From Anaerolineae bacterium (GTDB lineage Bacteria; Chloroflexota; Anaerolineae; UBA4142): DNA of 64,000 nucleotides. The translations under genes were made by a program, and so were the position numbers. The stretch is taken from the NCBI GenBank assembly GCA_034435055.1, contig DAOTXS010000024.1, positions 342 to 64,341 of the forward strand, given 5' to 3'. The notes beneath the pieces are model-generated. The model did not search any database, was not told the origin of the DNA, and was given only the letters and a program-made list of their open reading frames with translations. Positions 11,767-48,538 of this stretch are shown one piece after another (the stretch's first letter is position 1; each line of letters starts with the position of its first letter).

Positions 11767-12734
11767 AACGAATGCTCAAAATCATTTTGATCGTGCTTGG
11801 CGTTGTGATTGTCTTGTTGGCGATTGTTCCGTTTCTCATTCCGGTGCCACCGCTCGAAAACGTTGTGCCGCCGGAAAAGCTGGCGGATGCGGATAGCCGG
11901 TTCATCAACATCCACGGCATCAACGTGCATTACAAAATGTTTGGGCAAGGCAAGCCGGTTTTCATTCTCTTGCATGGTTTCGCCGCGAGTGAATTTTCGT
12001 GGCGCGAGGTGATGCAACCGCTTGCACAAGAATACAACGCAACCGTGATCGCGTACGACCGCCCGGCGTTTGGCTTGACCGCGCGTCCGTTGCCCGGCGA
12101 ATGGACAGGCGACTCGCCGTACGGACCGGACGCGCAAGTGAATATGCTAATCGGTTTGATGGACGCGCTGAAAATCGAACGCGCGATTTGGGTGGGCAAT
12201 TCAGCCGGCGGCGGCATTGCCGCGCTCGCCGCGCTTCGTCATCCCAGCCGGGTGGATGCGCTGATTCTCGTCGATGCGGCAATCGGCGGGGGTAGCAACG
12301 CGCCGTGGTATCAGCCGTTGATGACGACGCCGCAAGGACGACGGATCGGACCCTTGATCGCGCGGCAGATCAAAGAGTGGGGCATTGATTTTGGCAAATC
12401 GGCGTGGCACGCTCCATCCAAGATTACGCCGGAGATTTGGCAAGGGTATTTGAAACCACTTCAGGTCGAAAACTGGGATCGCGCGTTGTGGGAGTTTACG
12501 GCGTCGTCCCGCCCCACCGAACTGGCGAGTCAAATCAAAAATATCACGCTGCCGACGCTTGTCATCACCGGCGATGATGACAAAATCGTACCCAAGGAAC
12601 GAAGCATTCGGTTGGCAAATGAGTTACCGAACGCCAAGTTGGTAGTGATTCCAAATTGTGGTCACGTGCCTCACGAGGAATGTCCCGCCGAGTTTCTGAG
12701 CGCGGTGAAAAATTTTATGGGGACGATGCGATGA
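11763..12734 (+). CDS. Alpha/beta hydrolase with N-terminal TM
   Basis: LHGFAAS, YDRPAFG, GNSAGG, GDDD, CGHVPHEE. Confidence 0.92.
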   Translation: MKRMLKIILIVLGVVIVLLAIVPFLIPVPPLENVVPPEKLADADSRFINIHGINVHYKMFGQGKPVFILLHGFAASEFSWREVMQPLAQEYNATVIAYDRPAFGLTARPLPGEWTGDSPYGPDAQVNMLIGLMDALKIERAIWVGNSAGGGIAALAALRHPSRVDALILVDAAIGGGSNAPWYQPLMTTPQGRRIGPLIARQIKEWGIDFGKSAWHAPSKITPEIWQGYLKPLQVENWDRALWEFTASSRPTELASQIKNITLPTLVITGDDDKIVPKERSIRLANELPNAKLVVIPNCGHVPHEECPAEFLSAVKNFMGTMR

Positions 12735-12741
12735 GAAAAGC

Positions 12742-12775
12742 AAAACCGGGTTTCAAGGAGAAACCCGGTTTCTTA
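12742..12775. terminator. Hairpin (bidirectional terminator / REP-like)
   Basis: AAACCGGGTTTC-AAGGA-GAAACCCGGTTT between convergent genes. Confidence 0.7.
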
Positions 12776-12776
12776 T

Positions 12777-13109
12777 TTATGCCGCTTCGGCGAGCGCGCG
12801 ATGTTCTTTGAAATACGCATCGACCTCGCTGCGTGCTTTTTGAAACTGTTTGATCAGTGCTTCGTCATTCCCTTTATACGAAGCCAGTGTTCGCTTGGCG
12901 CACGCCGAGCAACCCATCAACGCTTTGTAGCGATCCGGGTTGCAATCGAGGCAACTGCATTGGCGGATCATCATCAGCGAGAAGGCAAGACTATCGGGGT
13001 GATCCTCGGGCAGGTTGGCGACACGCTTGGTCAAGTCGCGCCACTTGCCGTTGCGTATCGTCATCAACGATGCGATGCTCTTGTGCGGGAACAAAATCTC
13101 GGCACGCAT
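12777..13109 (-). CDS. Cys-rich hypothetical protein (putative Zn-binding)
   Basis: 110 aa; CSCLDC..CSAC; AGAAAGGA RBS; directly downstream of rnpB. Confidence 0.75.
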   Translation of the reverse strand: MRAEILFPHKSIASLMTIRNGKWRDLTKRVANLPEDHPDSLAFSLMMIRQCSCLDCNPDRYKALMGCSACAKRTLASYKGNDEALIKQFQKARSEVDAYFKEHRALAEAA

Positions 13110-13178
13110 AGTTAATCGACTTCCTTTCTATGGACGCGGATAACGCATCCGCATTGGTTTTTCAATCGGCGATGAAAG

Positions 13179-13582
13179 CGGCAAGCAGCCGTACCCCCGA
13201 TTCTGTTCTGTCCGTCATCTGTCTCACGGCTGGCGCCGTGGTCACGCTTGCGTTGCCGAGTGTTGTTCGGCTTTCACAGCGAAACTGCGACGGGAATCCA
13301 CCGGCTTGCGCCAGCCGATCCCACCCGCCTTGCTCCCAGTTGGACATTCACCTAGCCGCCGATATTGCTATCGACGCTGGTGGGCTTTTACCCCACCGTT
13401 GCACTCCTGACTCGCTTACGCGAGCGGATATGTTCTCTGTTGCAGTTGTCGTCACGCGCCGATTACTCGGCGTGTGCCCTCACTTGTCGTTTCGTGAGGC
13501 AACCGCGTTTCTTGCCGCGGCAAGAAACCGGGAGTCGGGAAGTTCCTCTCGTTGATACGAGCGACGGATCACTTGCTTGCCG
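13179..13582 (-). ncRNA. rnpB: RNase P RNA
   Basis: P1 CGGCAAGCA/UGCUUGCCG, P2 UCCGUC/GACGGA, P4 GAGGAACUUCCCGAC/ACAGAAUCGGGGGUA, UGCAACAGAGAAC, P13 GGUGGG-GUAAAAG-CCCACC, P14 with GCAA loop, GGGAGCAAGG. Confidence 0.95.
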
Positions 13583-13625
13583 AAAATGAGGCGGCAGGGA
13601 ATCGAACCCTGAACCCACAGCTTAA

Positions 13626-14319
13626 CCTACCACACTAGCTTTCGCTAGCCGCGCTTGCGCGCGTTGTAGTCTGGATCATCTCTTTACCCTCGGCTTTGTC
13701 CGGTCGGGTAGATTGCGTATGATCTCTGAGGGCTTGCTTGAAATCGAGATAGGTTTCAAACCAATGAACACCTTTGCGTTGATTGTTCTTTGGTTTATCT
13801 ACTCGAATGACGGTGGTGCCTTTGGCTTCAAGTATTTGATCTACACTCAAAAAGAGAATGATATCTCTTTGCGGAATGTAAACCGCAAACACATCCACGT
13901 CTTTTGATTTGTAGCGATAGCGATATCCCCCGGACCACTCTTCCGAGAATCCACGCTAATTTTGCCTTCTTTGAGATTCCTCGTCTTGACTTGGATTTTG
14001 ATTGGTTGGTCATCAACCAAAACAATCAAATCCACTCGCGCCAAGTCTCCCATTTCGGCAAAGACGCTCAAACCTTTGGACATGAGATGCGCCGCGACAC
14101 GCAGTACGCCAATGGCTCCCAACTGTTTACTATGTAGTTTCATCTATGCCGCTCTCCTGCATAGGGTATCAAACTTTGAGAGCCAATTCAAGGTTGCCTG
14201 CTGATTGCCCACATATCCCTGACATTTTCACGCGGAGTAACGTAGTCAGGGCTTGAGGGTGTTCCAGCATACAGCAATCTGCACTGTCCCAAATTACTTT
14301 GGGCAGGCTCCATTCATTA
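13626..14319 (-). mobile_element. Group I intron (694 nt) in tRNA anticodon, with ORF
   Basis: 5' exon ends in U, intron ends in G; P2 CUGCCCAAA/UUUGGGACAG, P3 AGAUUGC/GCAAUCU, P4 UGCUGG/UCAGCA, P7 G(A)GAUCA (13726-13720)/UGAUCC (13678-13673), P8 UACCC/GGGUA, two GNRA-capped P9 hairpins. Confidence 0.95.
13635..14143 (-). pseudogene. Intron-encoded PD-(D/E)XK homing endonuclease (I-Ssp6803I-like), frameshifted at about 13927-13931
   Basis: AGGAG RBS, ATG 14143; GAIG..VDLIV..KIQVKT motif in frame 1; ..GYRYRYKSKDVDVFAVY.. continues in a second frame to TAG 13637-13635. Confidence 0.85.
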
Positions 14320-14381
14320 AAGGCTGTTGCTCTGCCAATTGAGCTACCGCCCCCTATAAGATTTTAACGTGCGTCAGGCAC

Positions 14382-14408
14382 AAAAATCGGCGTGAGTTCA
14401 TCACGCCG
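14382..14408 (-). terminator. Intrinsic terminator downstream of GAF gene
   Basis: CGGCGTGA/TCACGCCG stem followed by ATTTTT on minus strand. Confidence 0.65.
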
Positions 14409-14518
14409 CAACAGGCGTTTCCCCGTTTGCTTGGGCAGTTTACCACAACTATTTATTGCTTGTCAAGCGTTTTGCCAAGCTCAAATTATGTTAATTGGCG
14501 GCGAAGTAAAGTCGATGT

Positions 14519-14959
14519 TCAAAAGCGAATTGCCAATAATCTAGCAATCTCCTCCAAAAATATCCGATCCGATTCGGTGAACGCCGCCGGCACATCGCTG
14601 TCAATATCGATTTCGCCGAACACACGATTGTCGCGCATAATCGGCACGACGATTTCGCTCCGCGTTTCCAAACTGCACGCGATGTACTCGGCATCGCTGT
14701 TCACATCGTCCACGATCACCGTGTCTTTAATGCGCGCGGCGCGCCCACAGATGCCTGCGCCAATCGGAATGCGTGTGTGTTCGGTGGGGCGACCGCGAAA
14801 CGAATGCAACACCAATGTCTCGCCATCGAGCAAGTAAAGATAAACGCCGGTGTAATGTGGAAAATTTTCTTTGAGCGTTGCGGCAACCAAGTCAAGGAGA
14901 TTAGAGATTGGGGATTCGAGATTTTGTTTGACCAGTTCAATTACTTTTTGTTGATTCAT
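14519..14959 (-). CDS. Stand-alone GAF protein (fRMsr/MsrC-like)
   Basis: RIPIGAGICG, VDDV, YIACS, SEIVVPI, GEIDIDS. Confidence 0.88.
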   Translation of the reverse strand: MNQQKVIELVKQNLESPISNLLDLVAATLKENFPHYTGVYLYLLDGETLVLHSFRGRPTEHTRIPIGAGICGRAARIKDTVIVDDVNSDAEYIACSLETRSEIVVPIMRDNRVFGEIDIDSDVPAAFTESDRIFLEEIARLLAIRF

Positions 14960-16594: not shown

Positions 16595-18067
16595 CTATTT
16601 GATCACATGTAACAACTGCATCACACTCGCCTGAATCGGATCCAAGAACGTGCGCGGGTACACGCCGATCCAAACGATGAACACGACCAACGCAACCAGC
16701 AATGCAATTTCGCGCACGGATAAATCGGAGAGCGATTTATTTTCTTCGTGCGTAATGGGTCCATTCATCACGCGTTGATACATCCACAACAAATAAACGG
16801 CAGAGAGGACAACGCCGGTGGCAGCAAACGCCGCGTACCACACATTCGCCTGAAACGCGCCGACGAGAATCAAAAATTCACCAACAAAGCCGTTCAAGCC
16901 GGGCAAGCCCACTGACGAGAACATCACAATCAGCATGAACGCGGCGTAAATCGGCATCACTTTGGCGATGCCACCAAAATCGGCGATGAGGCGTGTGTGC
17001 CGGCGTTCGTACAACATCCCCACCAGCAAAAACAGTGCGCCGGTCGAAAGACCGTGATTGATCATTTGCAAAATACCACCGCTCATCCCTTGCGCGTTGA
17101 AGGCAAACAAACCCAGCATTACAAAACCAAGGTGTGAGACACTCGAGAACGCCACCAGCGATTTCACATCGCGTTGCACGATAGACACGATGGCGCCGTA
17201 GATGATACCAATGATCGCCAGCACAATCATCCATGGCGCAAACGATTTTGCGGCCTCCGGGAACAGTGGCAAGCAGAATCGAAGGAAACCGTACGTACCC
17301 ATTTTGAGCAAGACGCCGGCAAGGATCACACTGCCCGCCGTCGGCGCTTCCACGTGCGCATCGGGTAGCCACGTGTGAAAGGGAAACATTGGTACTTTGA
17401 TCGCAAACGCCAGCGCGAACGCGAGGAACAAGATCGGTTGCAAGCCCAGCGGCACCGGCGTTCTCAAAACATCCGTGAGCGCGAACGAGAGCGTGCCAGT
17501 TACATCGCGTTGCACAAACACCAGCGCCAGCATCGCCACCAACATCAGCGTCGAGCCGAACATCGTGAACAGGATAAATTTGATGGCGGCGTACACTTTG
17601 CGCCCGTGCCCCCAAATGCCGATCAGGAACGCCATCGGGATGAGCGTAAATTCCCAAAAGATGTAGAATAGAAATAGATCGAAAGATACGAAAACGCCGA
17701 TCATTGCGGATTCGAGCAAGAGGAAAAAGATGTGATACTCTTTGACGCGCTCAATGATGCCAACCCAGGAGCCGCCAATCGCGATGATCATCAAGAACGT
17801 GGTGAGCAACACGAGCAAAATGCTCAAGCCATCCACGGCGAGATACCACGAGATACCCAGTTGCGGAATCCACGCAACGCGCTCGACGAATTGCAAATCG
17901 GCAGTGGCGCGGAAATTCAAGAACAATACAACACTGACGACGAACTCGATAATTGTCGTGGCGAGCGCGAGCCATCGAACTGCTTTTTCGGATTGGTGCG
18001 GAATGAACAATAGAATGAGCGCGCCAACCAGCGGGAGAACAATGAGAAGAGAAAGTAGATTAGTCAT
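16595..18067 (-). CDS. nuoM: NADH-quinone oxidoreductase subunit M
   Basis: [59 protein letters not shown]. Confidence 0.97.
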
Positions 18068-18707
18068 TCTTCAAGTTTCGTTGTGAAAACCAGATTTTTT
18101 CATCCGCAAGCCAACCGTCTTGGGTGGGTTGACCGATAAGATTCTCGCGGTCAAATTTCCATCGAAATGGATTCGACACAATGTACTCACGGATGCGGTT
18201 CAGTTCATTTTCATTGCGGATGATATGTTCGTAATAGTTGCGTTGCCAAAATTTTCCGACAACGTTGAGATTATTTTGTTTGATGTAGTTGAGCCACATT
18301 ATCGTGCACAATGATTTGAATGCACCAACCACATTGCCCAAGGTTGGTCTCGTAGGGGCAGGGCTCGCCCCTGCCCTGCCTTGGACGACCCTCGCCCCAT
18401 TCTGGGCGACCACAAGGGTCGCCCCAACGTCATCCGCCAACACCAGGATGCCGTGAATGTGATTAGGCATGACCACGAATGCATCCAACGCGACCGATGG
18501 AAAACGATTCGGAATATCATTCCAAGACCGATTTACAATTTCGCCTAACGCTGATAATGCGATCCCGCTGTCGCGAATTTCCGATAAGATGCACGCGCGG
18601 TCTCGAACCGTTGCTGTAATAAAGTACGCCCCTGCGCTTGAATAGTCGTACCCTTTCAAGCGGATTGACCGACGATGATGTTTCGTTGGGTTGTATCGTG
18701 ATCTCAT
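18060..18707 (-). mobile_element. REP-associated tyrosine transposase (RAYT, IS200-like Y1 HUH)
   Basis: SIRLKGYDYS, YFITA, FVVMPNHIHGI (HUH), FWQRNYYEHIIR..IREYIVSNP. Confidence 0.93.
18352..18428. repeat. REP doublet (REPIN) inside RAYT coding sequence
   Basis: GTAG-GGGCAGGG..CCCTGCCC and inverted GTTG-GGGCGACC..GGTCGCCC. Confidence 0.8.
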
Positions 18708-18721
18708 TTTGCGATTCTACA

Positions 18722-20671
18722 TTACCGCAACATCAACCACCCCAGCACCATCACCGTGCCGATAAGCATCAACAACGCGTACGCGCGCGCGTAACCGGTT
18801 TGCCATCCGCGCAGAACGCGGCTGACCGACGCCGTGGCTTGTCCCAGCCCATTCGCAAAACCATCAATGATTTTCACATCCACGGTTTGCCACAAGAACA
18901 TGGCGAGCTTGCCACCCTGTTTGACGAAAATCCAAGCATAGATTTCGTCCACATAGTACTTGTGCCACAGCAAGTTATAGATACTGCTAAATCGCTTTGC
19001 CAAGTTCTTTGGAATTTCCGGACGCAGTTGGTAGAACCAGAACGCCGTTGCAATGCCAAGCAAGCCAACTGCAACCGATGCACCGATTAACATCCATTCC
19101 ATTGATGGCGTGAGATGCAAATCGTGTGGCTTGAACACCGGCTCAAAATATCCTTCAAGGAAATTCGGTCCGATTACTTTGGGCATTCCAACAAAGCCGG
19201 CAATGATCGAGAAGAATGCGAGGATGGCAAGCGGAATCGTCATCACCGCCGGCGATTCGTGGGGATGAAGCGACCGATGGCCGACGACCGATGACAGATG
19301 ATGCTCTGCTTCGGTCTTCGGTCCTCCGTCCTCCGTCCAGCGTGCTTGCGTGCGGAAGGTCAAGAAGAACGCACGGAAAATGTAGAACGCGGTAAGTAAC
19401 GCCGTGAGCAAACCGATTGCCCACAAAATCGTATGACCGGAGCCGAACGCGGCGGCAAGAATTTCGTCTTTGCTGAAAAAGCCGGACAGGAGCGGAAAGC
19501 CGGCAATCGCCAGCGCACCCACACCAAAGGTCGTGTACGTCCACGGCATCACCTTGGACAAGCCCCCCAGTTTCCGCATATCAATGATGCCGTTCATCGC
19601 GTGCATCACACTCCCCGCCGCGAGGAAGAGCAACGCTTTGAAAAAGGCGTGCGTCATCAAATGAAAGATGCCAGCGCCGTACGCCATCACGCCAACCCCT
19701 AGGAACATATAACCGAGTTGCGAAATCGTGGAGTACGCGAGGACGCGCTTCAAATCCATTTGCACGAGCGCAATCGTCGCGGCGAAGAGCGCGGTGAGTC
19801 CACCCGTCCACGCAACGACTTCGGATGAGAACGGCGCGAGTTCGAACAAGACGTGCGAACGCGCCACCATATACACGCCCGCCGTAACCATCGTGGCGGC
19901 GTGGATGAGCGCGCTGACCGGCGTGGGACCCTCCATCGCGTCGGGCAACCAGACGTAGAGCGGGAGTTGCGCCGATTTGCCCACCGCGCCGGCAAAAAGC
20001 AACAGCGTGATGATCGTGATGATTGGTGCGCCGGGCTGGAACCATTCGTGCGCGCTCTCAAACACGTGCACAAAATCGAGCGTGCCGAACGTAACGAAAA
20101 TCAAAATCACACCCAGCCCAAAACCAAAATCGCCGACGCGCGTGGTGATGAAGGCTTTTTTGCCTGCCGCCGCCGCTTCCGGCTTGTGAAACCAGAACGC
20201 GATCAGCAAATACGAGCACAAGCCGACGAGTTCCCAGCCGACGTACATCAGCAAATAGTTATTGCCAAGCACGAGCATCAGCATCGAGAACACAAAGAGG
20301 TTGAGGTACGTAAAGAAGCGACCGTAGCCGTCGTCGTGTTCCATATAGCCGATAGAGTACACGTGGATGAGAAAGCCGACGCCGGTAACAACGAGGAGCA
20401 TCAGCGCGGAGAGCGGATCGAGCAGGAAAGCAACGTCAACTTTGAAGTCGCCGACCGGAACCCACGAATACAACGATACGTTGATGACGCGATGATGCTC
20501 GTCTTGCGCTTGCATTGCCAAGAACATCAAAAGCGACACGATGAATGAAAGCCCAACGGTGCCGCACGCGATTGCGCTGACGAGCCAGCGCGGCATCTTG
20601 CGACTAAAAATTGCGTTGATGGTTGCGCCGGCAAGCGGTAACACCGGCACGAGCCAGAGTAAGTTGGTCAA
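18722..20671 (-). CDS. nuoL: NADH-quinone oxidoreductase subunit L
   Basis: TTG start with AAGGA RBS; GWELVGLCSYLLI, GKSAQLPL..WLPDAMEGPTPVSALIHAATMV, HLMTHAFFKALLF. Confidence 0.97.
   Translation of the reverse strand: MTNLLWLVPVLPLAGATINAIFSRKMPRWLVSAIACGTVGLSFIVSLLMFLAMQAQDEHHRVINVSLYSWVPVGDFKVDVAFLLDPLSALMLLVVTGVGFLIHVYSIGYMEHDDGYGRFFTYLNLFVFSMLMLVLGNNYLLMYVGWELVGLCSYLLIAFWFHKPEAAAAGKKAFITTRVGDFGFGLGVILIFVTFGTLDFVHVFESAHEWFQPGAPIITIITLLLFAGAVGKSAQLPLYVWLPDAMEGPTPVSALIHAATMVTAGVYMVARSHVLFELAPFSSEVVAWTGGLTALFAATIALVQMDLKRVLAYSTISQLGYMFLGVGVMAYGAGIFHLMTHAFFKALLFLAAGSVMHAMNGIIDMRKLGGLSKVMPWTYTTFGVGALAIAGFPLLSGFFSKDEILAAAFGSGHTILWAIGLLTALLTAFYIFRAFFLTFRTQARWTEDGGPKTEAEHHLSSVVGHRSLHPHESPAVMTIPLAILAFFSIIAGFVGMPKVIGPNFLEGYFEPVFKPHDLHLTPSMEWMLIGASVAVGLLGIATAFWFYQLRPEIPKNLAKRFSSIYNLLWHKYYVDEIYAWIFVKQGGKLAMFLWQTVDVKIIDGFANGLGQATASVSRVLRGWQTGYARAYALLMLIGTVMVLGWLMLR
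19272..19338. repeat. Inverted heptamer array in frame within nuoL
   Basis: GACCGAT GGCCGAC GACCGAT GACAGAT - spacer - TCGGTCT TCGGTCC TCCGTCC TCCGTCC. Confidence 0.75.
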
Positions 20672-47620: not shown

Positions 47621-48538
47621 CTATCCAACTCGTTTGACCGTTGCTCTCTCCAAATCCTTTACCACAATCGTGTTCGGGAAAACCGCGCGCGCTTCCGCTT
47701 CAATCACCGCGCCAGAGTAGCGCCGCGAAATGTGCGTGAGATAAAGTTGCTTGACCTTCGCATCGCGCGCGCATGCGGCAGATTCCGCGGCGGTGATGTG
47801 CCCAAACTTGCGCGCTGTCTCCACGTCGTCCATTGTGTACGTCGCTTCCATCACGAGTGCATCCGCGTCGCGCGCCGGTTCCAGCACTTCGTCCGTGCGC
47901 GCAATATCGCCGACGTAAACCAATTTTGTGCCCGGCACCGGCTCGCCCAACACATCTGCCGGCTTGACGATGCGCCCGTCCGCGAGCGTGAGTGTTTCGC
48001 CCGCGACGAGGCGTTTGCGTTCGGGTCCCGCCGGCACGCCCAGTTTTTCCGCTTGCTCGACTAAAAACGGGCGCTTGGTTTTTTCCTGAAACACAAAACC
48101 GAAACAACCGCTTCCGCGATGAACGACCGGAAACGCGTAGACATCGAGATTCTTTTCCGACAGCACCAAACCATGTTTCAGTTCGATGAATTCGATCTCC
48201 ATCTCGACTTCTTTGCCGCGCAAGACGACCTTCATCAAATCGCGCACGCGGTCGATTGCCCAGCGCCCGCCGTAAATCTCGATTTTGTTGATCGCTTCCC
48301 AACGTCCAAACGTCGACACGATGCCGCCCAGTCCCAGGATGTGATCGAGGTGTCCGTGCGTCAAGAAAATTCGGCGCAGGTCTTTGAACCCCAGACCGCT
48401 CGTCAAGATTTGGCGTTGCGTGCCTTCCGCGCAATCGAGCAGGAAACGCTGACCTTCGTGAATCAGCATCGTCGAGGTCATATTGCGTTCGATACTTGGC
48501 GCGGACGCCGAGGTGCCTAAGAAACAAAGTTCAAACAT
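47621..48538 (-). CDS. rnz: Ribonuclease Z
   Basis: FLGTSASAPS, DCAEGTQRQ, THGHLDH, exosite GVPAGP, EATY, GHITA, THISRRY. Confidence 0.95.
   Translation of the reverse strand: MFELCFLGTSASAPSIERNMTSTMLIHEGQRFLLDCAEGTQRQILTSGLGFKDLRRIFLTHGHLDHILGLGGIVSTFGRWEAINKIEIYGGRWAIDRVRDLMKVVLRGKEVEMEIEFIELKHGLVLSEKNLDVYAFPVVHRGSGCFGFVFQEKTKRPFLVEQAEKLGVPAGPERKRLVAGETLTLADGRIVKPADVLGEPVPGTKLVYVGDIARTDEVLEPARDADALVMEATYTMDDVETARKFGHITAAESAACARDAKVKQLYLTHISRRYSGAVIEAEARAVFPNTIVVKDLERATVKRVG

Follow-up and report, generated by a model that had tools for sequence, protein, structure and literature searches.

The fold of a tRNA embedded in a longer transcript recruits RNase P and RNase Z, and in MALAT1-mascRNA and the plant tRNA-snoRNA dicistrons these enzymes define the ends of the neighboring RNA. 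The same principle operates as tRNA punctuation in mitochondria, and in human mitochondria an abutting downstream RNA acquires its 5' end through RNase Z (PMC3790967). In yeast mitochondria, the RNase P RNA itself, RPM1, is part of such a transcript, tRNAfMet-RPM1-tRNAPro, and tRNase Z contributes to its release (PMC3866640). For bacteria, cotranscription of rnpB with an upstream gene is described for S. aureus, where RNase J trims the RNA back to helix P1 (PMC3937233).

The locus described here lies in a stretch of 64,000 nucleotides (the window) from an Anaerolineae bacterium and places an RNase P RNA gene of the bacterial class A directly 3' of a tRNA gene. The order on the minus strand is promoter, leader, tRNA-Lys(UUU) with a group I intron, UUUU, rnpB, a 66-nt spacer, a 110-amino-acid open reading frame (ORF), and a terminator (Table 1). 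Every element that the initial annotation had placed in this unit was located on the minus strand, positions included.

Table 1. Features of the tRNA-Lys/rnpB locus and the RNase Z gene in the window
Feature	Position	Strand	Basis or remark
Sigma-70-type promoter, TTGACA-N18-(TGg)TAAACT	14437..14466	-	Scan; 10/12 matches, TG extension
Structured leader, three adjoining hairpins	14354..14431	-	MFE -30 kcal/mol, z -4.6
tRNA-Lys(UUU) exon 1	14320..14353	-	Cloverleaf once spliced; orthologs uninterrupted
Group I intron (putative)	13626..14319	-	694 nt; anticodon loop, between positions 34 and 35
PD-(D/E)XK (PF11645) homing-endonuclease gene, broken	13635..14143	-	Both halves match PF11645
tRNA-Lys exon 2	13587..13625	-	3' end is discriminator A13587, no CCA
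UUUU spacer, tRNA to rnpB	13583..13586	-	Sequence
RNase P RNA, bacterial class A	13176..13582	-	Rfam RF00010, nhmmer
Hairpin GCGGAU-GCGUU-AUCCGC	13136..13152	-	Few nt 5' of ribosome-binding site; no U-tract on this strand
Shine-Dalgarno AAAGGAAG	13120..13127	-	10 nt 5' of ATG; within conserved motif AUAGAAAGGAA
Gene for 110-aa basic all-helical protein, uncharacterised family	12777..13109	-	153 homologs; pI 9.1
Strong intrinsic terminator	12742..12772	-	Scan; 13-bp stem, bidirectional, 4 nt past ORF stop codon
RNase Z gene (rnz)	47621..48538	-	NCBIfam NF000801, 267.7 bits, cut-off 252

Relatives were collected through the ORF, and adjacency counts cover the ORF-bearing clade. Within it, 27 loci reach far enough upstream to be informative, L012, L016, and L023 being cut by contig ends. 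The order tRNA-Lys(UUU), rnpB, ORF is kept in all 27 informative related loci, those of this bacterium and 26 relatives, which answers the question of synteny in relatives raised by the initial annotation and takes the layout far beyond chance. The gap between tRNA and rnpB measures about 4 to 17 nt in 17 of the 27 loci and 27 to 94 nt in ten. The initial annotation saw no space for a promoter in the UUUU of the window, and the gaps are likewise too short for one in those 17 loci. Scanned with the criteria used for the window, none of the 27 loci shows a terminator-like site in the gap from tRNA to rnpB. Subgroup A, to which the window belongs, comprises 19 loci including the window; the stretch from rnpB to the ORF is free of terminator-like sites in all 18 related loci, and none of the 19 has a sigma-70-like promoter in the interval from tRNA exon 2 to the ORF. 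The spacer between rnpB and the ORF shrinks to 31 to 36 nt (L005 and L003), and a terminator-like site follows the ORF at a distance of 4 to 23 nt in 11 of the 18 related loci as well as in the window. The minus strand of the window has a single promoter-like site upstream of or within the unit (14466..14437; the scan covers sigma-70-type sites only) and two terminator-like sites, one at 14408..14388 between promoter and tRNA and the other at 12772..12742. No internal sigma-70-like promoters or intrinsic terminators occur in the stretch that starts with the tRNA and ends with the ORF stop codon, in agreement with the earlier remark that no clear terminator precedes the ORF; the next one lies past it.

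The sister subgroup B shows a different downstream part, with an extra RNA of ∼250 nt and its own terminator between rnpB and the ORF. Compared with Rfam, this RNA gives only a partial tmRNA match, at its tRNA-like end, and inspection by eye for a tmRNA-style tag frame reveals no conserved one. Because the ORF follows a separate terminated RNA in subgroup B, its cotranscription is not general. The single transcription unit proposed by the initial annotation is thus supported for tRNA-Lys and rnpB by adjacency, gap lengths, and the lack of internal sites, and its extension to the ORF does not hold across the clade. For the window, cotranscription of tRNA-Lys, rnpB, and the ORF is the best reading, and we infer it from the arrangement of the genes.

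The RNase P RNA aligns to the full RF00010 model (positions 1 to 367) at 13581..13176 with an E value of 3e-28; its 92.3 bits lie below the gathering score of 100, and the orthologs of relatives range from 76 to 118 bits. Helix P1 contains 9 bp formed by 13582..13574 with 13187..13179, and this pairing shows that position 13582 was rightly taken as the 5' end. Helix P4 is formed by 13543..13535 with 13200..13193 and consists of the pairs A-U, C-G, U.G (U-A in four relatives), C-G, C-G, C-G, G-C, and A-U, with a bulged U after the third. Read from the sequence, the P1 closing helix and the P4 with bulged U of class A are both present. The CR-I/CR-V consensus GAGGAAAGUCCGGGC/ACAGAACCCGGCUUA is not matched by the window, which has GAGGAACUUCCCGAC/ACAGAAUCGGGGGUA: four P4 base pairs are off consensus, each of them still paired. 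The P4 variant is invariant in all related rnpB copies that include the region, and because it is common to all of them, the deviation represents a lineage variant and not decay. The clade-wide helix variant also explains why the gene falls below the Rfam gathering score.

Joining 14353..14320 to 13625..13587 yields a canonical 73-nt tRNA-Lys(UUU) cloverleaf with ARAGORN, and the spliced sequence, ending in discriminator A13587, confirms the earlier statement that no CCA is encoded. Both ARAGORN and Rfam miss this tRNA in the raw window because the intron interrupts the gene; uninterrupted orthologs reach 61 to 73 bits with the Rfam tRNA model. The intron boundaries are fixed by strain L113, which is near-identical to the window and lacks precisely 14319..13626. 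Exon 1 ends with CCUU, giving a 5' exon terminal U, and the intron ends with GGUAGG, giving a terminal G. Homologous introns occupy the same site in L001, L003, L017, L018, and L019. RNAalifold folds the six introns into a multi-helix consensus, in which two stems, compared by eye, vary in sequence yet stay complementary; the P-, Q-, and R-like elements AUGCUGGAA, AAUCAGCAGG, and CCAGACUACAA were likewise found by eye. The Rfam model Intron_gpI (RF00028) reaches 16 bits (E value of 0.47; gathering score of 50) and covers the P4-P6 part only, and its core model gives no match at an E value of ≤0.01 in four related introns. Judged by the U and terminal G at the splice sites, the helices, and the presence/absence pattern, the intron is assigned to group I, and self-splicing is predicted.

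The endonuclease gene inside the intron matches PF11645 with 40.8 bits in its N-terminal half (cut-off of 26.1). Two extra nucleotides in the G-run at 13931..13927, which is GGGGG here but GGG in L111, disrupt the frame; the near-identical strains L111, L115, and L116 contain an intact endonuclease of 168 amino acids. The frameshift may be an assembly error in the homopolymer, although L112 has the same change. Judging by these strains, intron and endonuclease follow the classic course in which invasion leads to decay and loss. The intron occurs in 6 of the 27 loci, is precisely missing from L113 and 21 orthologs, and is polymorphic within the species. This distribution gives no support to the role in RNase P RNA biogenesis that the initial annotation had given it; the intron is an incidental, sporadic selfish insert. 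In cyanobacteria, the group I intron of tRNA-fMet encodes I-Ssp6803I, a PD-(D/E)XK homing endonuclease of PF11645 (reference 105 in PMC3984707). The intron described here shares with it the bacterial tRNA anticodon loop as insertion site, the group I assignment, and the endonuclease family but differs in its host, tRNA-Lys(UUU) of a member of the Chloroflexota, and in a ribozyme far below the Rfam group I cut-off. Literature searches, with most subscription journals outside their coverage, found nothing specific on a group I intron in tRNA-Lys, a bacterial tRNA-rnpB operon, or RNase P RNA in Chloroflexi/Anaerolineae. To our knowledge, a group I intron at this tRNA-Lys(UUU) site has not been described.

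A conserved promoter-leader-terminator module 5' of the tRNA had been overlooked by the initial annotation. A promoter of the form TTGACA-N18-TAxAxT precedes tRNA-Lys in 24 of the 27 loci. The middle leader hairpin, GGCGUGA-loop-UCACGCC (14408..14388) followed by U residues as far as 14381, resembles a terminator and has a conserved sequence, with one copy in the window and the same position in most relatives. An Rfam search of the leader finds no family at an E value of ≤10 in the window and none at ≤0.01 in the relatives. The spacing of the module varies: in L022 the promoter lies 11 nt from the tRNA without a leader, in L010 and L015 only 10 to 13 nt separate the leader U-run from the tRNA, which leaves no space for a second promoter, and in L005 and L009 an extra protein gene stands between module and tRNA. 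Subgroup B leaders show a frame of 23 to 24 codons and an internal stem kept paired, with three pairs changed on both sides. A resemblance of this frame to the N-terminus of ribosomal protein L34 (HGFxR, two sequences) was dropped because the peptide is poorly conserved whereas the RNA stem inside it stays paired. An attenuator based on a leader peptide with Lys codons was also rejected, each frame containing only one or two AAA codons and no run.

The ORF is, by the measure of its 153 homologs, a real conserved gene. Among the cysteines C51, C53, C56, C67, and C70 of the protein, Cys53, Cys56, Cys67, and Cys70 are invariant (CxxC...CxxC) and suggest a metal site; many Arg and Lys residues of the family are invariant as well. 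The hairpin at 13136..13152, listed by the terminator scan as a plus-strand site only, has an equivalent of varying stem sequence ahead of the ribosome-binding site in most but not all of 20 subgroup A spacers. Comparison with Pfam gives no significant match (one at chance level, FlhE, with an E value of 0.073), NCBIfam gives none, and distant homologs, sought with a closer five-sequence alignment, show isolated weak Pfam matches only. Structure prediction, which the initial annotation had recommended, produces an AlphaFold model with a pLDDT of 81.5 and no PDB fold match with an E value below 2; the PDB sequence-profile search returns only a designed helical repeat protein. Across Pfam, NCBIfam, PDB profiles, and PDB folds, the protein resembles neither RnpA nor any RNA-binding family or fold.

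The tRNA-Lys gene and tRNA-Leu, the window's other tRNA gene, both lack an encoded CCA, and the rnz gene noted initially is indeed present, but 34 kb away and unlinked. The prerequisites of tRNA punctuation are thereby found at this locus, a CCA-less tRNA directly 5' of rnpB, in an arrangement kept in 27 of 27 loci, and an encoded RNase Z. They support the initial proposal that RNase Z releases the RNase P RNA up to the point of the cleavage itself, which would proceed as follows. The locus is probably an operon of stable RNAs, characteristic of a single Anaerolineae lineage and processed from one primary transcript. The near-consensus promoter about 85 nt upstream would drive this transcript, which would contain the leader, tRNA-Lys(UUU), the RNase P RNA, and, for loci of this subgroup, the ORF mRNA, and would end at the strong terminator past the ORF. 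In the suggested order of steps, the group I intron would splice itself from the tRNA, RNase P would cleave off the leader at the tRNA 5' end, and RNase Z, proposed for the 3' end because the tRNA gene lacks CCA, would cut past discriminator A13587. The same RNase Z cut would yield a 5'-monophosphate RNase P RNA with only UUUU ahead of P1, and the four U residues would be either kept or removed as far as P1. Additional cleavage within the 66-nt spacer would part the RNase P RNA from the mRNA of the ORF; the 5' end of this mRNA may be capped by the conserved hairpin beside the ribosome-binding site.

Instead of a shared transcript, the synteny could be inherited without cotranscription, with rnpB and the ORF having their own promoters invisible to a sigma-70 scan; these would overlap the 3' half of the tRNA or the 3' end of rnpB or use another sigma factor, and the tight spacing would reflect genome compaction around stable-RNA genes. 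The ten loci with wider tRNA-rnpB gaps agree with this explanation, as does the motif ATTAACAA, conserved in subgroup B about 10 nt 5' of both the tRNA and rnpB, which may serve as a lineage-specific promoter element or mark a site of processing. Yeast mitochondria, moreover, have a second promoter 5' of RPM1 despite cotranscription (PMC3866640), and S. aureus rnpB is possibly fed by both upstream and proximal start sites (PMC3937233). Independent promoters are nevertheless unlikely: the short gaps of 17 loci would force them into an invariant tRNA that has no promoter-like match, candidates sought by eye in the 3' half of the tRNA and in the spacer between rnpB and the ORF all fall short of the scan criteria, and no terminator follows the tRNA in any of the 27 loci. 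The upstream module bears on the same question, since its terminator-like hairpin, and in L005 and L009 also the protein gene, splits the promoter from the tRNA; the tRNA's real promoter is perhaps unrecognised, and the recognised one may belong to a small RNA. The leader hairpin module either acts as an attenuator or represents a small RNA in its own right. As a cis-acting attenuator, the module would meter read-through to tRNA-Lys, rnpB, and the ORF, which is consistent with its single copy and fixed position, with the tight spacing in L010, L015, and L022, and with the paired stem and retained frame of the subgroup B leaders. A conserved UUCACCC just upstream can also pair with the 5' half of the terminator stem (GGcGUGAA), leading to mutually exclusive hairpins. 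The sequence of this antiterminator hairpin is conserved, but the hairpin is energetically no better than shuffled controls (z of about 0) and weaker than the terminator; the leader body is poorly conserved and varies between about 50 and 170 nt, the short version of the window is without UUCACCC, the leader matches no Rfam family, and promoter plus terminator fit a free-standing small RNA gene equally well. Attenuation is entertained here tentatively.

The four-cysteine protein was viewed by the initial annotation as a candidate RNA-processing partner, and in an extended form it would be a dedicated cofactor, chaperone, or regulator serving the RNase P RNA or the maturation of tRNA and RNase P RNA. 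Its gene follows rnpB in each of the 27 loci and accompanies the P4 variant throughout the sampled loci. The rnpB-linked proteins are basic, with a median pI of 8.8 (n = 69), compared to 5.6 for the acidic, unlinked distant homologs (n = 15), and the invariant Arg, Lys, and Cys residues point in the same direction. On the other hand, the linkage is restricted to the clade: nhmmer and ARAGORN find neither rnpB nor tRNA-Lys near the ORF in the 80 loci of the nearest homolog clade, where its neighboring genes vary, and Rfam finds nothing in 20 of them. The intervening RNA gene with terminator in subgroup B and the lack of similarity to RnpA or an RNA-binding family or fold also weaken the proposal, and gene order in one lineage can come by descent alone. 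A dedicated partner is accordingly considered improbable. The most far-reaching interpretation joins these parts into a re-wired RNase P, with a re-paired P4, an RNA made only via the tRNA-Lys precursor under attenuator control, and the four-cysteine protein as a new RNase P or maturation factor; it is regarded as highly doubtful, and, if true, it would imply that RNase P activity, the supply of tRNA-Lys, and the synthesis of the RNase P RNA feed back on one another.

For the preferred reading, a stable-RNA operon, the yeast mitochondrial tRNAfMet-RPM1-tRNAPro unit is the closest precedent. In both, the RNase P RNA gene lies directly 3' of a tRNA, and the precursor includes (here, would include) the enzyme's own substrate (PMC3866640; PMC3790967); the resemblance extends to subgroup B, where rnpB is flanked by tRNA-like structures on both sides. 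In contrast to the reduced, A/U-rich RNA of an organelle, the RNA described here is a full-size class A RNA of a free-living bacterium, a protein-coding gene takes the place of the downstream tRNA in the window, and the processing is a proposal. The S. aureus gpsB(SA1279)-rnpB locus is similar in that rnpB is expressed partly by read-through, its 5' extension, processed by an endonuclease plus RNase J, being trimmed to, and protected by, P1 (PMC3937233). It differs in its upstream protein gene and an additional proximal start site; in the Anaerolineae locus, a tRNA occupies the upstream position, and the processing of its own 3' end would provide the cleavage. With mitochondrial tRNA punctuation, the locus would share the recruitment of RNase P and RNase Z by a tRNA fold that sets the neighbor's ends (PMC3790967). 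Unlike in those systems, the neighbor released would be RNase P's own catalytic RNA, encoded on a bacterial chromosome.

The findings bear on annotation and on RNase P biochemistry. At least seven of the examined loci fall below the Rfam gathering score, and standard annotation will report such genomes as lacking rnpB; the intron conceals the tRNA-Lys gene from tRNA finders. The fixed adjacency of tRNA-Lys and rnpB provides a route to locating both genes. The naturally re-paired P4 offers ready compensatory mutations in the catalytic core. The logic of a precursor shared by a tRNA and the RNase P RNA is documented so far mainly in yeast mitochondria. If transcripts confirm the proposed operon, this lineage would present a conserved bacterial case in which the RNase P RNA is made on the precursor of its substrate and freed by the tRNA 3' enzyme, and it would provide a simple system for the coupling of RNase P RNA and tRNA levels.

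The gene for a tRNA-Lys(UUU), rnpB, which encodes the RNase P RNA, and a 110-codon ORF for a Cys-rich protein lie in series on the minus strand of the window, as listed below. At gathering thresholds, ARAGORN and Rfam miss both the tRNA-Lys and rnpB in the window; a relaxed Rfam search aligns the class A RNase P RNA model along its entire length at 92.3 bits (E 3e-28), short of the gathering score of 100. The joined exons yield a canonical 73-nt tRNA-Lys(UUU). It ends without an encoded CCA, and the gene for RNase Z, rnz, is present in the window, both as described in the initial annotation; the window's other tRNA gene likewise lacks CCA. Helix P1 pairs 13582..13574 with 13187..13179, so the rnpB 5' end at 13582 and the four-base spacer are upheld. 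The ORF follows after a 66-nt spacer, and the only promoter-like site upstream of or within the unit on the minus strand (scan of 12500..14700) precedes the tRNA.

Features of the tRNA-Lys-rnpB-ORF unit and the RNase Z gene in window coordinates
Feature	Position	Strand	Basis
Promoter-like site TTGACA-N18-TAAACT with TG extension	14466..14437	minus	promoter scan
78-nt leader with three adjacent hairpins	14431..14354	minus	MFE -30 kcal/mol, z -4.6
Middle leader hairpin GGCGUGA-loop-UCACGCC with U-run, terminator-like	14408..14381	minus	terminator scan
tRNA-Lys exon 1	14353..14320	minus	
694-nt insert in tRNA-Lys	14319..13626	minus	
tRNA-Lys exon 2	13625..13587	minus	
UUUU spacer	13586..13583	minus	
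RNase P RNA	13582..13176	minus	
Helix P4 of RNase P RNA	13543..13535 and 13200..13193	minus	
110-codon ORF	13109..12777	minus	
Terminator, 13-bp stem	12772..12742	minus	
RNase Z gene (rnz)	48538..47621		

Homologs of the ORF protein number 153, at 64 to 99% identity; few of them carry a source name, and those that do are mostly labelled Chloroflexota. A scan of the genome collection with this protein gave 30 loci (L001 to L030), of which L030 (Bacteroidales) is spurious and L012, L016, and L023 are cut by contig ends. The order tRNA-Lys(UUU), rnpB, ORF, whose conservation in relatives the initial annotation had proposed as a check, is found in the window and in each of the other 26 loci (27/27). 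Between the discriminator and the rnpB match lie 6 to 17 nt in 17 loci and 27 to 94 nt in the other ten; by P1 pairing, the gap in the window is 4 nt. With the terminator and promoter criteria of the window scan applied throughout, all 27 loci are free of terminator-like sites between tRNA and rnpB, and the 18 relatives of subgroup A also lack one from rnpB to the ORF. Subgroup A comprises the loci sharing the window's short rnpB-ORF spacer, which shrinks to 31 to 36 nt in some of them. Likewise, the 19 subgroup A loci, window included, show no promoter-like site from tRNA exon 2 to the ORF. A strong terminator follows 4 to 23 nt past the ORF stop in 11 of the 18 relatives and also in the window, and a promoter with TTGACA, an 18-nt spacer, and TAxAxT precedes the tRNA in 24 of the 27 loci. 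Conserved order and the lack of internal promoters and terminators point to a single transcription unit, unlike the pattern of independent genes. In subgroup A, the proposed unit would include the ORF; in the sister set, subgroup B, the ORF stands behind a terminator. The proposed tRNA-rnpB transcription unit is well supported by these comparisons.

Processing of the precursor would take place at the tRNA. RNase P would cut at G14353 to form the tRNA 5' end, and RNase Z would cut after A13587, since CCA is not encoded. After the latter cut, the RNase P RNA would begin with a 5' monophosphate, and the UUUU spacer would remain attached beside helix P1. The ORF mRNA would then be freed by a cut within the spacer; in most subgroup A loci, a hairpin of varying stem sequence lies just 5' of the conserved ribosome-binding motif AUAGAAAGGAA and could stabilise the 5' end of this mRNA. 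Each step appears plausible from three published cases. In yeast mitochondria, tRNase Z contributes to the release of RPM1 from the tRNAfMet-RPM1-tRNAPro transcript (PMC3866640), and in human mitochondria RNase Z makes the 5' end of the abutting RNA (PMC3790967). In S. aureus, rnpB derives partly from an upstream read-through transcript, which RNase J trims to P1, the helix protecting the end (PMC3937233). The tRNA-rnpB layout of these loci amounts to a bacterial variant of the principle known from mitochondria. Unit and processing taken together are moderately probable, with the tRNA-rnpB part rated higher than the whole.

Subgroup B (L017 to L021, L023 to L026) comprises more distant loci; the truncated L016 seems to be of this type as well. 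Here, rnpB and the ORF are separated by a conserved extra RNA of ∼250 nt (L019, 3590..4000). It starts with a tRNA-like domain of ∼80 nt that matches both ends of the tmRNA model (28 to 37 bits; E 1e-7 to 1e-11) and contains a G3-U70 pair and a discriminator A without CCA, and it ends with a GC-rich hairpin and a U-run ∼100 nt before the ORF. An mRNA-like part is absent from this RNA, and no conserved tag reading frame is seen. The position of rnpB between tRNA-like structures on both sides strengthens the model of tRNA punctuation. The tRNA-rnpB gaps are longer in this subgroup, and a conserved ATTAACAA, which may serve as a promoter element or mark a site of processing, precedes each of the two mature 5' ends by ∼10 nt. 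On the short contig of L016 (1..667), an apparent subgroup B-type RNA 5' of the ORF is split by an extra reading frame.

Upstream of tRNA-Lys, most of L001 to L029 share a leader module with the window (14466..14354), consisting of a near-consensus promoter, a structured leader of 50 to 170 nt, and a sequence-conserved GGCGUGA...UCACGCC hairpin with a U-run between promoter and tRNA. The hairpin is single copy and specific to this position, and no Rfam family matches the module in the window or its relatives. The module may act as an attenuator or may be a small RNA gene of its own. In L010 and L015, the U-run lies only 10 to 13 nt from the tRNA, so that transcription there must arrive by read-through; L022 has no leader, and its copy of this promoter directly adjoins the tRNA. 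Many loci contain a UUCACCC segment that could pair with the terminator stem on its 5' side, as in an attenuator; the predicted stability of this alternative pairing is no better than that of shuffled controls. L005 (2929..3408) and L009 (2856..3320) carry unrelated, differing protein genes between module and tRNA, which look like those for a YbaK-type deacylase and a zinc-ribbon membrane protein; the L005 gene stops 4 nt before the tRNA. A 6S RNA gene (L010, 3110..3287; Rfam, 65.9 bits) lies just 5' of the promoter-leader module, forming a stable-RNA gene cluster of 6S RNA, leader, tRNA-Lys, and rnpB in series. The leaders of L017 to L021 and L024 to L026 keep a frame of 23 to 24 codons (ATG ... 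GCGCGG-TAA/TAG) ∼150 to 220 nt 5' of tRNA-Lys, within which a CCGUC...GACGG stem remains paired although its sequence varies; HGFAR closes two of the peptides, recalling ribosomal protein L34, and the peptides are otherwise poorly conserved.

The 694-nt insert is, by its sequence features, a group I intron. A U closes the 5' exon and a G closes the insert, inspection by eye shows P-, Q-, and R-like core elements, and the Rfam group I model matches only weakly (16 bits). Homologous inserts, six in all, occupy the same anticodon-loop site; RNAalifold predicts a multihelix consensus for them, and two stems vary in sequence yet remain complementary by eye. The insert holds two halves of a PF11645 PD-(D/E)XK endonuclease. 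Among contigs whose ORF protein is identical to that of the window, the endonuclease is intact (168 amino acids) in three (L111, 1970..2476), whereas two extra G residues in the G-run 13931..13927 disrupt its frame (+2) in the window and in L112, which could alternatively be a homopolymer assembly error. In L113, exactly the 694 nt are absent, leaving an intron-free tRNA-Lys. Together, these near-identical strains capture every stage in the life cycle of the element: intact, frameshifted, and absent. L018 retains the ribozyme with an internally deleted endonuclease gene. The initial annotation tied RNase P RNA biogenesis to the intron; since it occurs in only 6 of 27 orthologous tRNA-Lys genes, and is polymorphic among near-identical strains, it is better seen as an incidental passenger than as part of the design.

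The Cys-rich protein is, judging by its alignment, real and strongly constrained, with a mean column identity of 75% over 69 sequences. It is basic (pI 9.1), and the structure prediction suggested in the initial annotation gives an all-helical model (pLDDT 81.5). It has no significant match among Pfam or NCBIfam families, and comparison with solved structures, both by sequence and by fold, gives none either. A profile search extends the family to 220 cluster representatives; across distant members, only W23 and C53, C56, C67, and C70 (CxxC...CxxC) are invariant, and the four cysteines suggest a metal site. Linkage to rnpB holds in all 27 informative loci, but none of 80 metagenome loci of the nearest homolog clade has rnpB or tRNA-Lys nearby (nhmmer, ARAGORN). 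Rfam finds nothing in the 20 such loci with full flanks, and neighbouring genes vary within this clade. The rnpB-linked proteins are basic, whereas distant unlinked homologs are acidic, the only hint favouring an RNA-related role. Given the unlinked homologs, the lack of a family or fold match, and charge as the sole hint, the proposed function as an RNA-processing partner is quite improbable. The simpler view is that the ORF in this lineage is expressed off a strong stable-RNA transcript.

Elsewhere in the window, genes for complex I antiporter-like subunits (16595..18067 and 18722..20671) flank a 215-amino-acid ORF (18060..18707, minus strand), which overlaps the first of them by 8 nt, has no Pfam match at E ≤ 1e-5, and appears to have been inserted into the nuo operon.

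Helix P4, which forms a lining of the active site, ranks with the best-conserved elements of RNase P RNA, making its alteration here a notable natural variant. CR-I and CR-V of the window read GAGGAACUUCCCGAC and ACAGAAUCGGGGGUA, compared to GAGGAAAGUCCGGGC and ACAGAACCCGGCUUA in the Rfam consensus. Four of the eight P4 pairs differ from the bacterial consensus, all still paired, and the bulged U is retained. Placed on the E. coli P4 helix, the changes are A67-U359 to C-G, G68-C358 to U.G, G72-C355 to C-G, and G74-C353 to A-U. The variant occurs in every related rnpB copy covering the region (L001 to L029), with the U.G pair changed to U-A in four loci; no published description was found in literature of incomplete coverage. 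Rfam scores of rnpB across the relatives range from 76 to 118 bits, and at least seven genes fall under the cutoff of 100 because of the P4 variant. Several rnpB copies of this clade would thus escape standard annotation. The P4 variant, the leader module, and the tmRNA-like element of the relatives merit follow-up.
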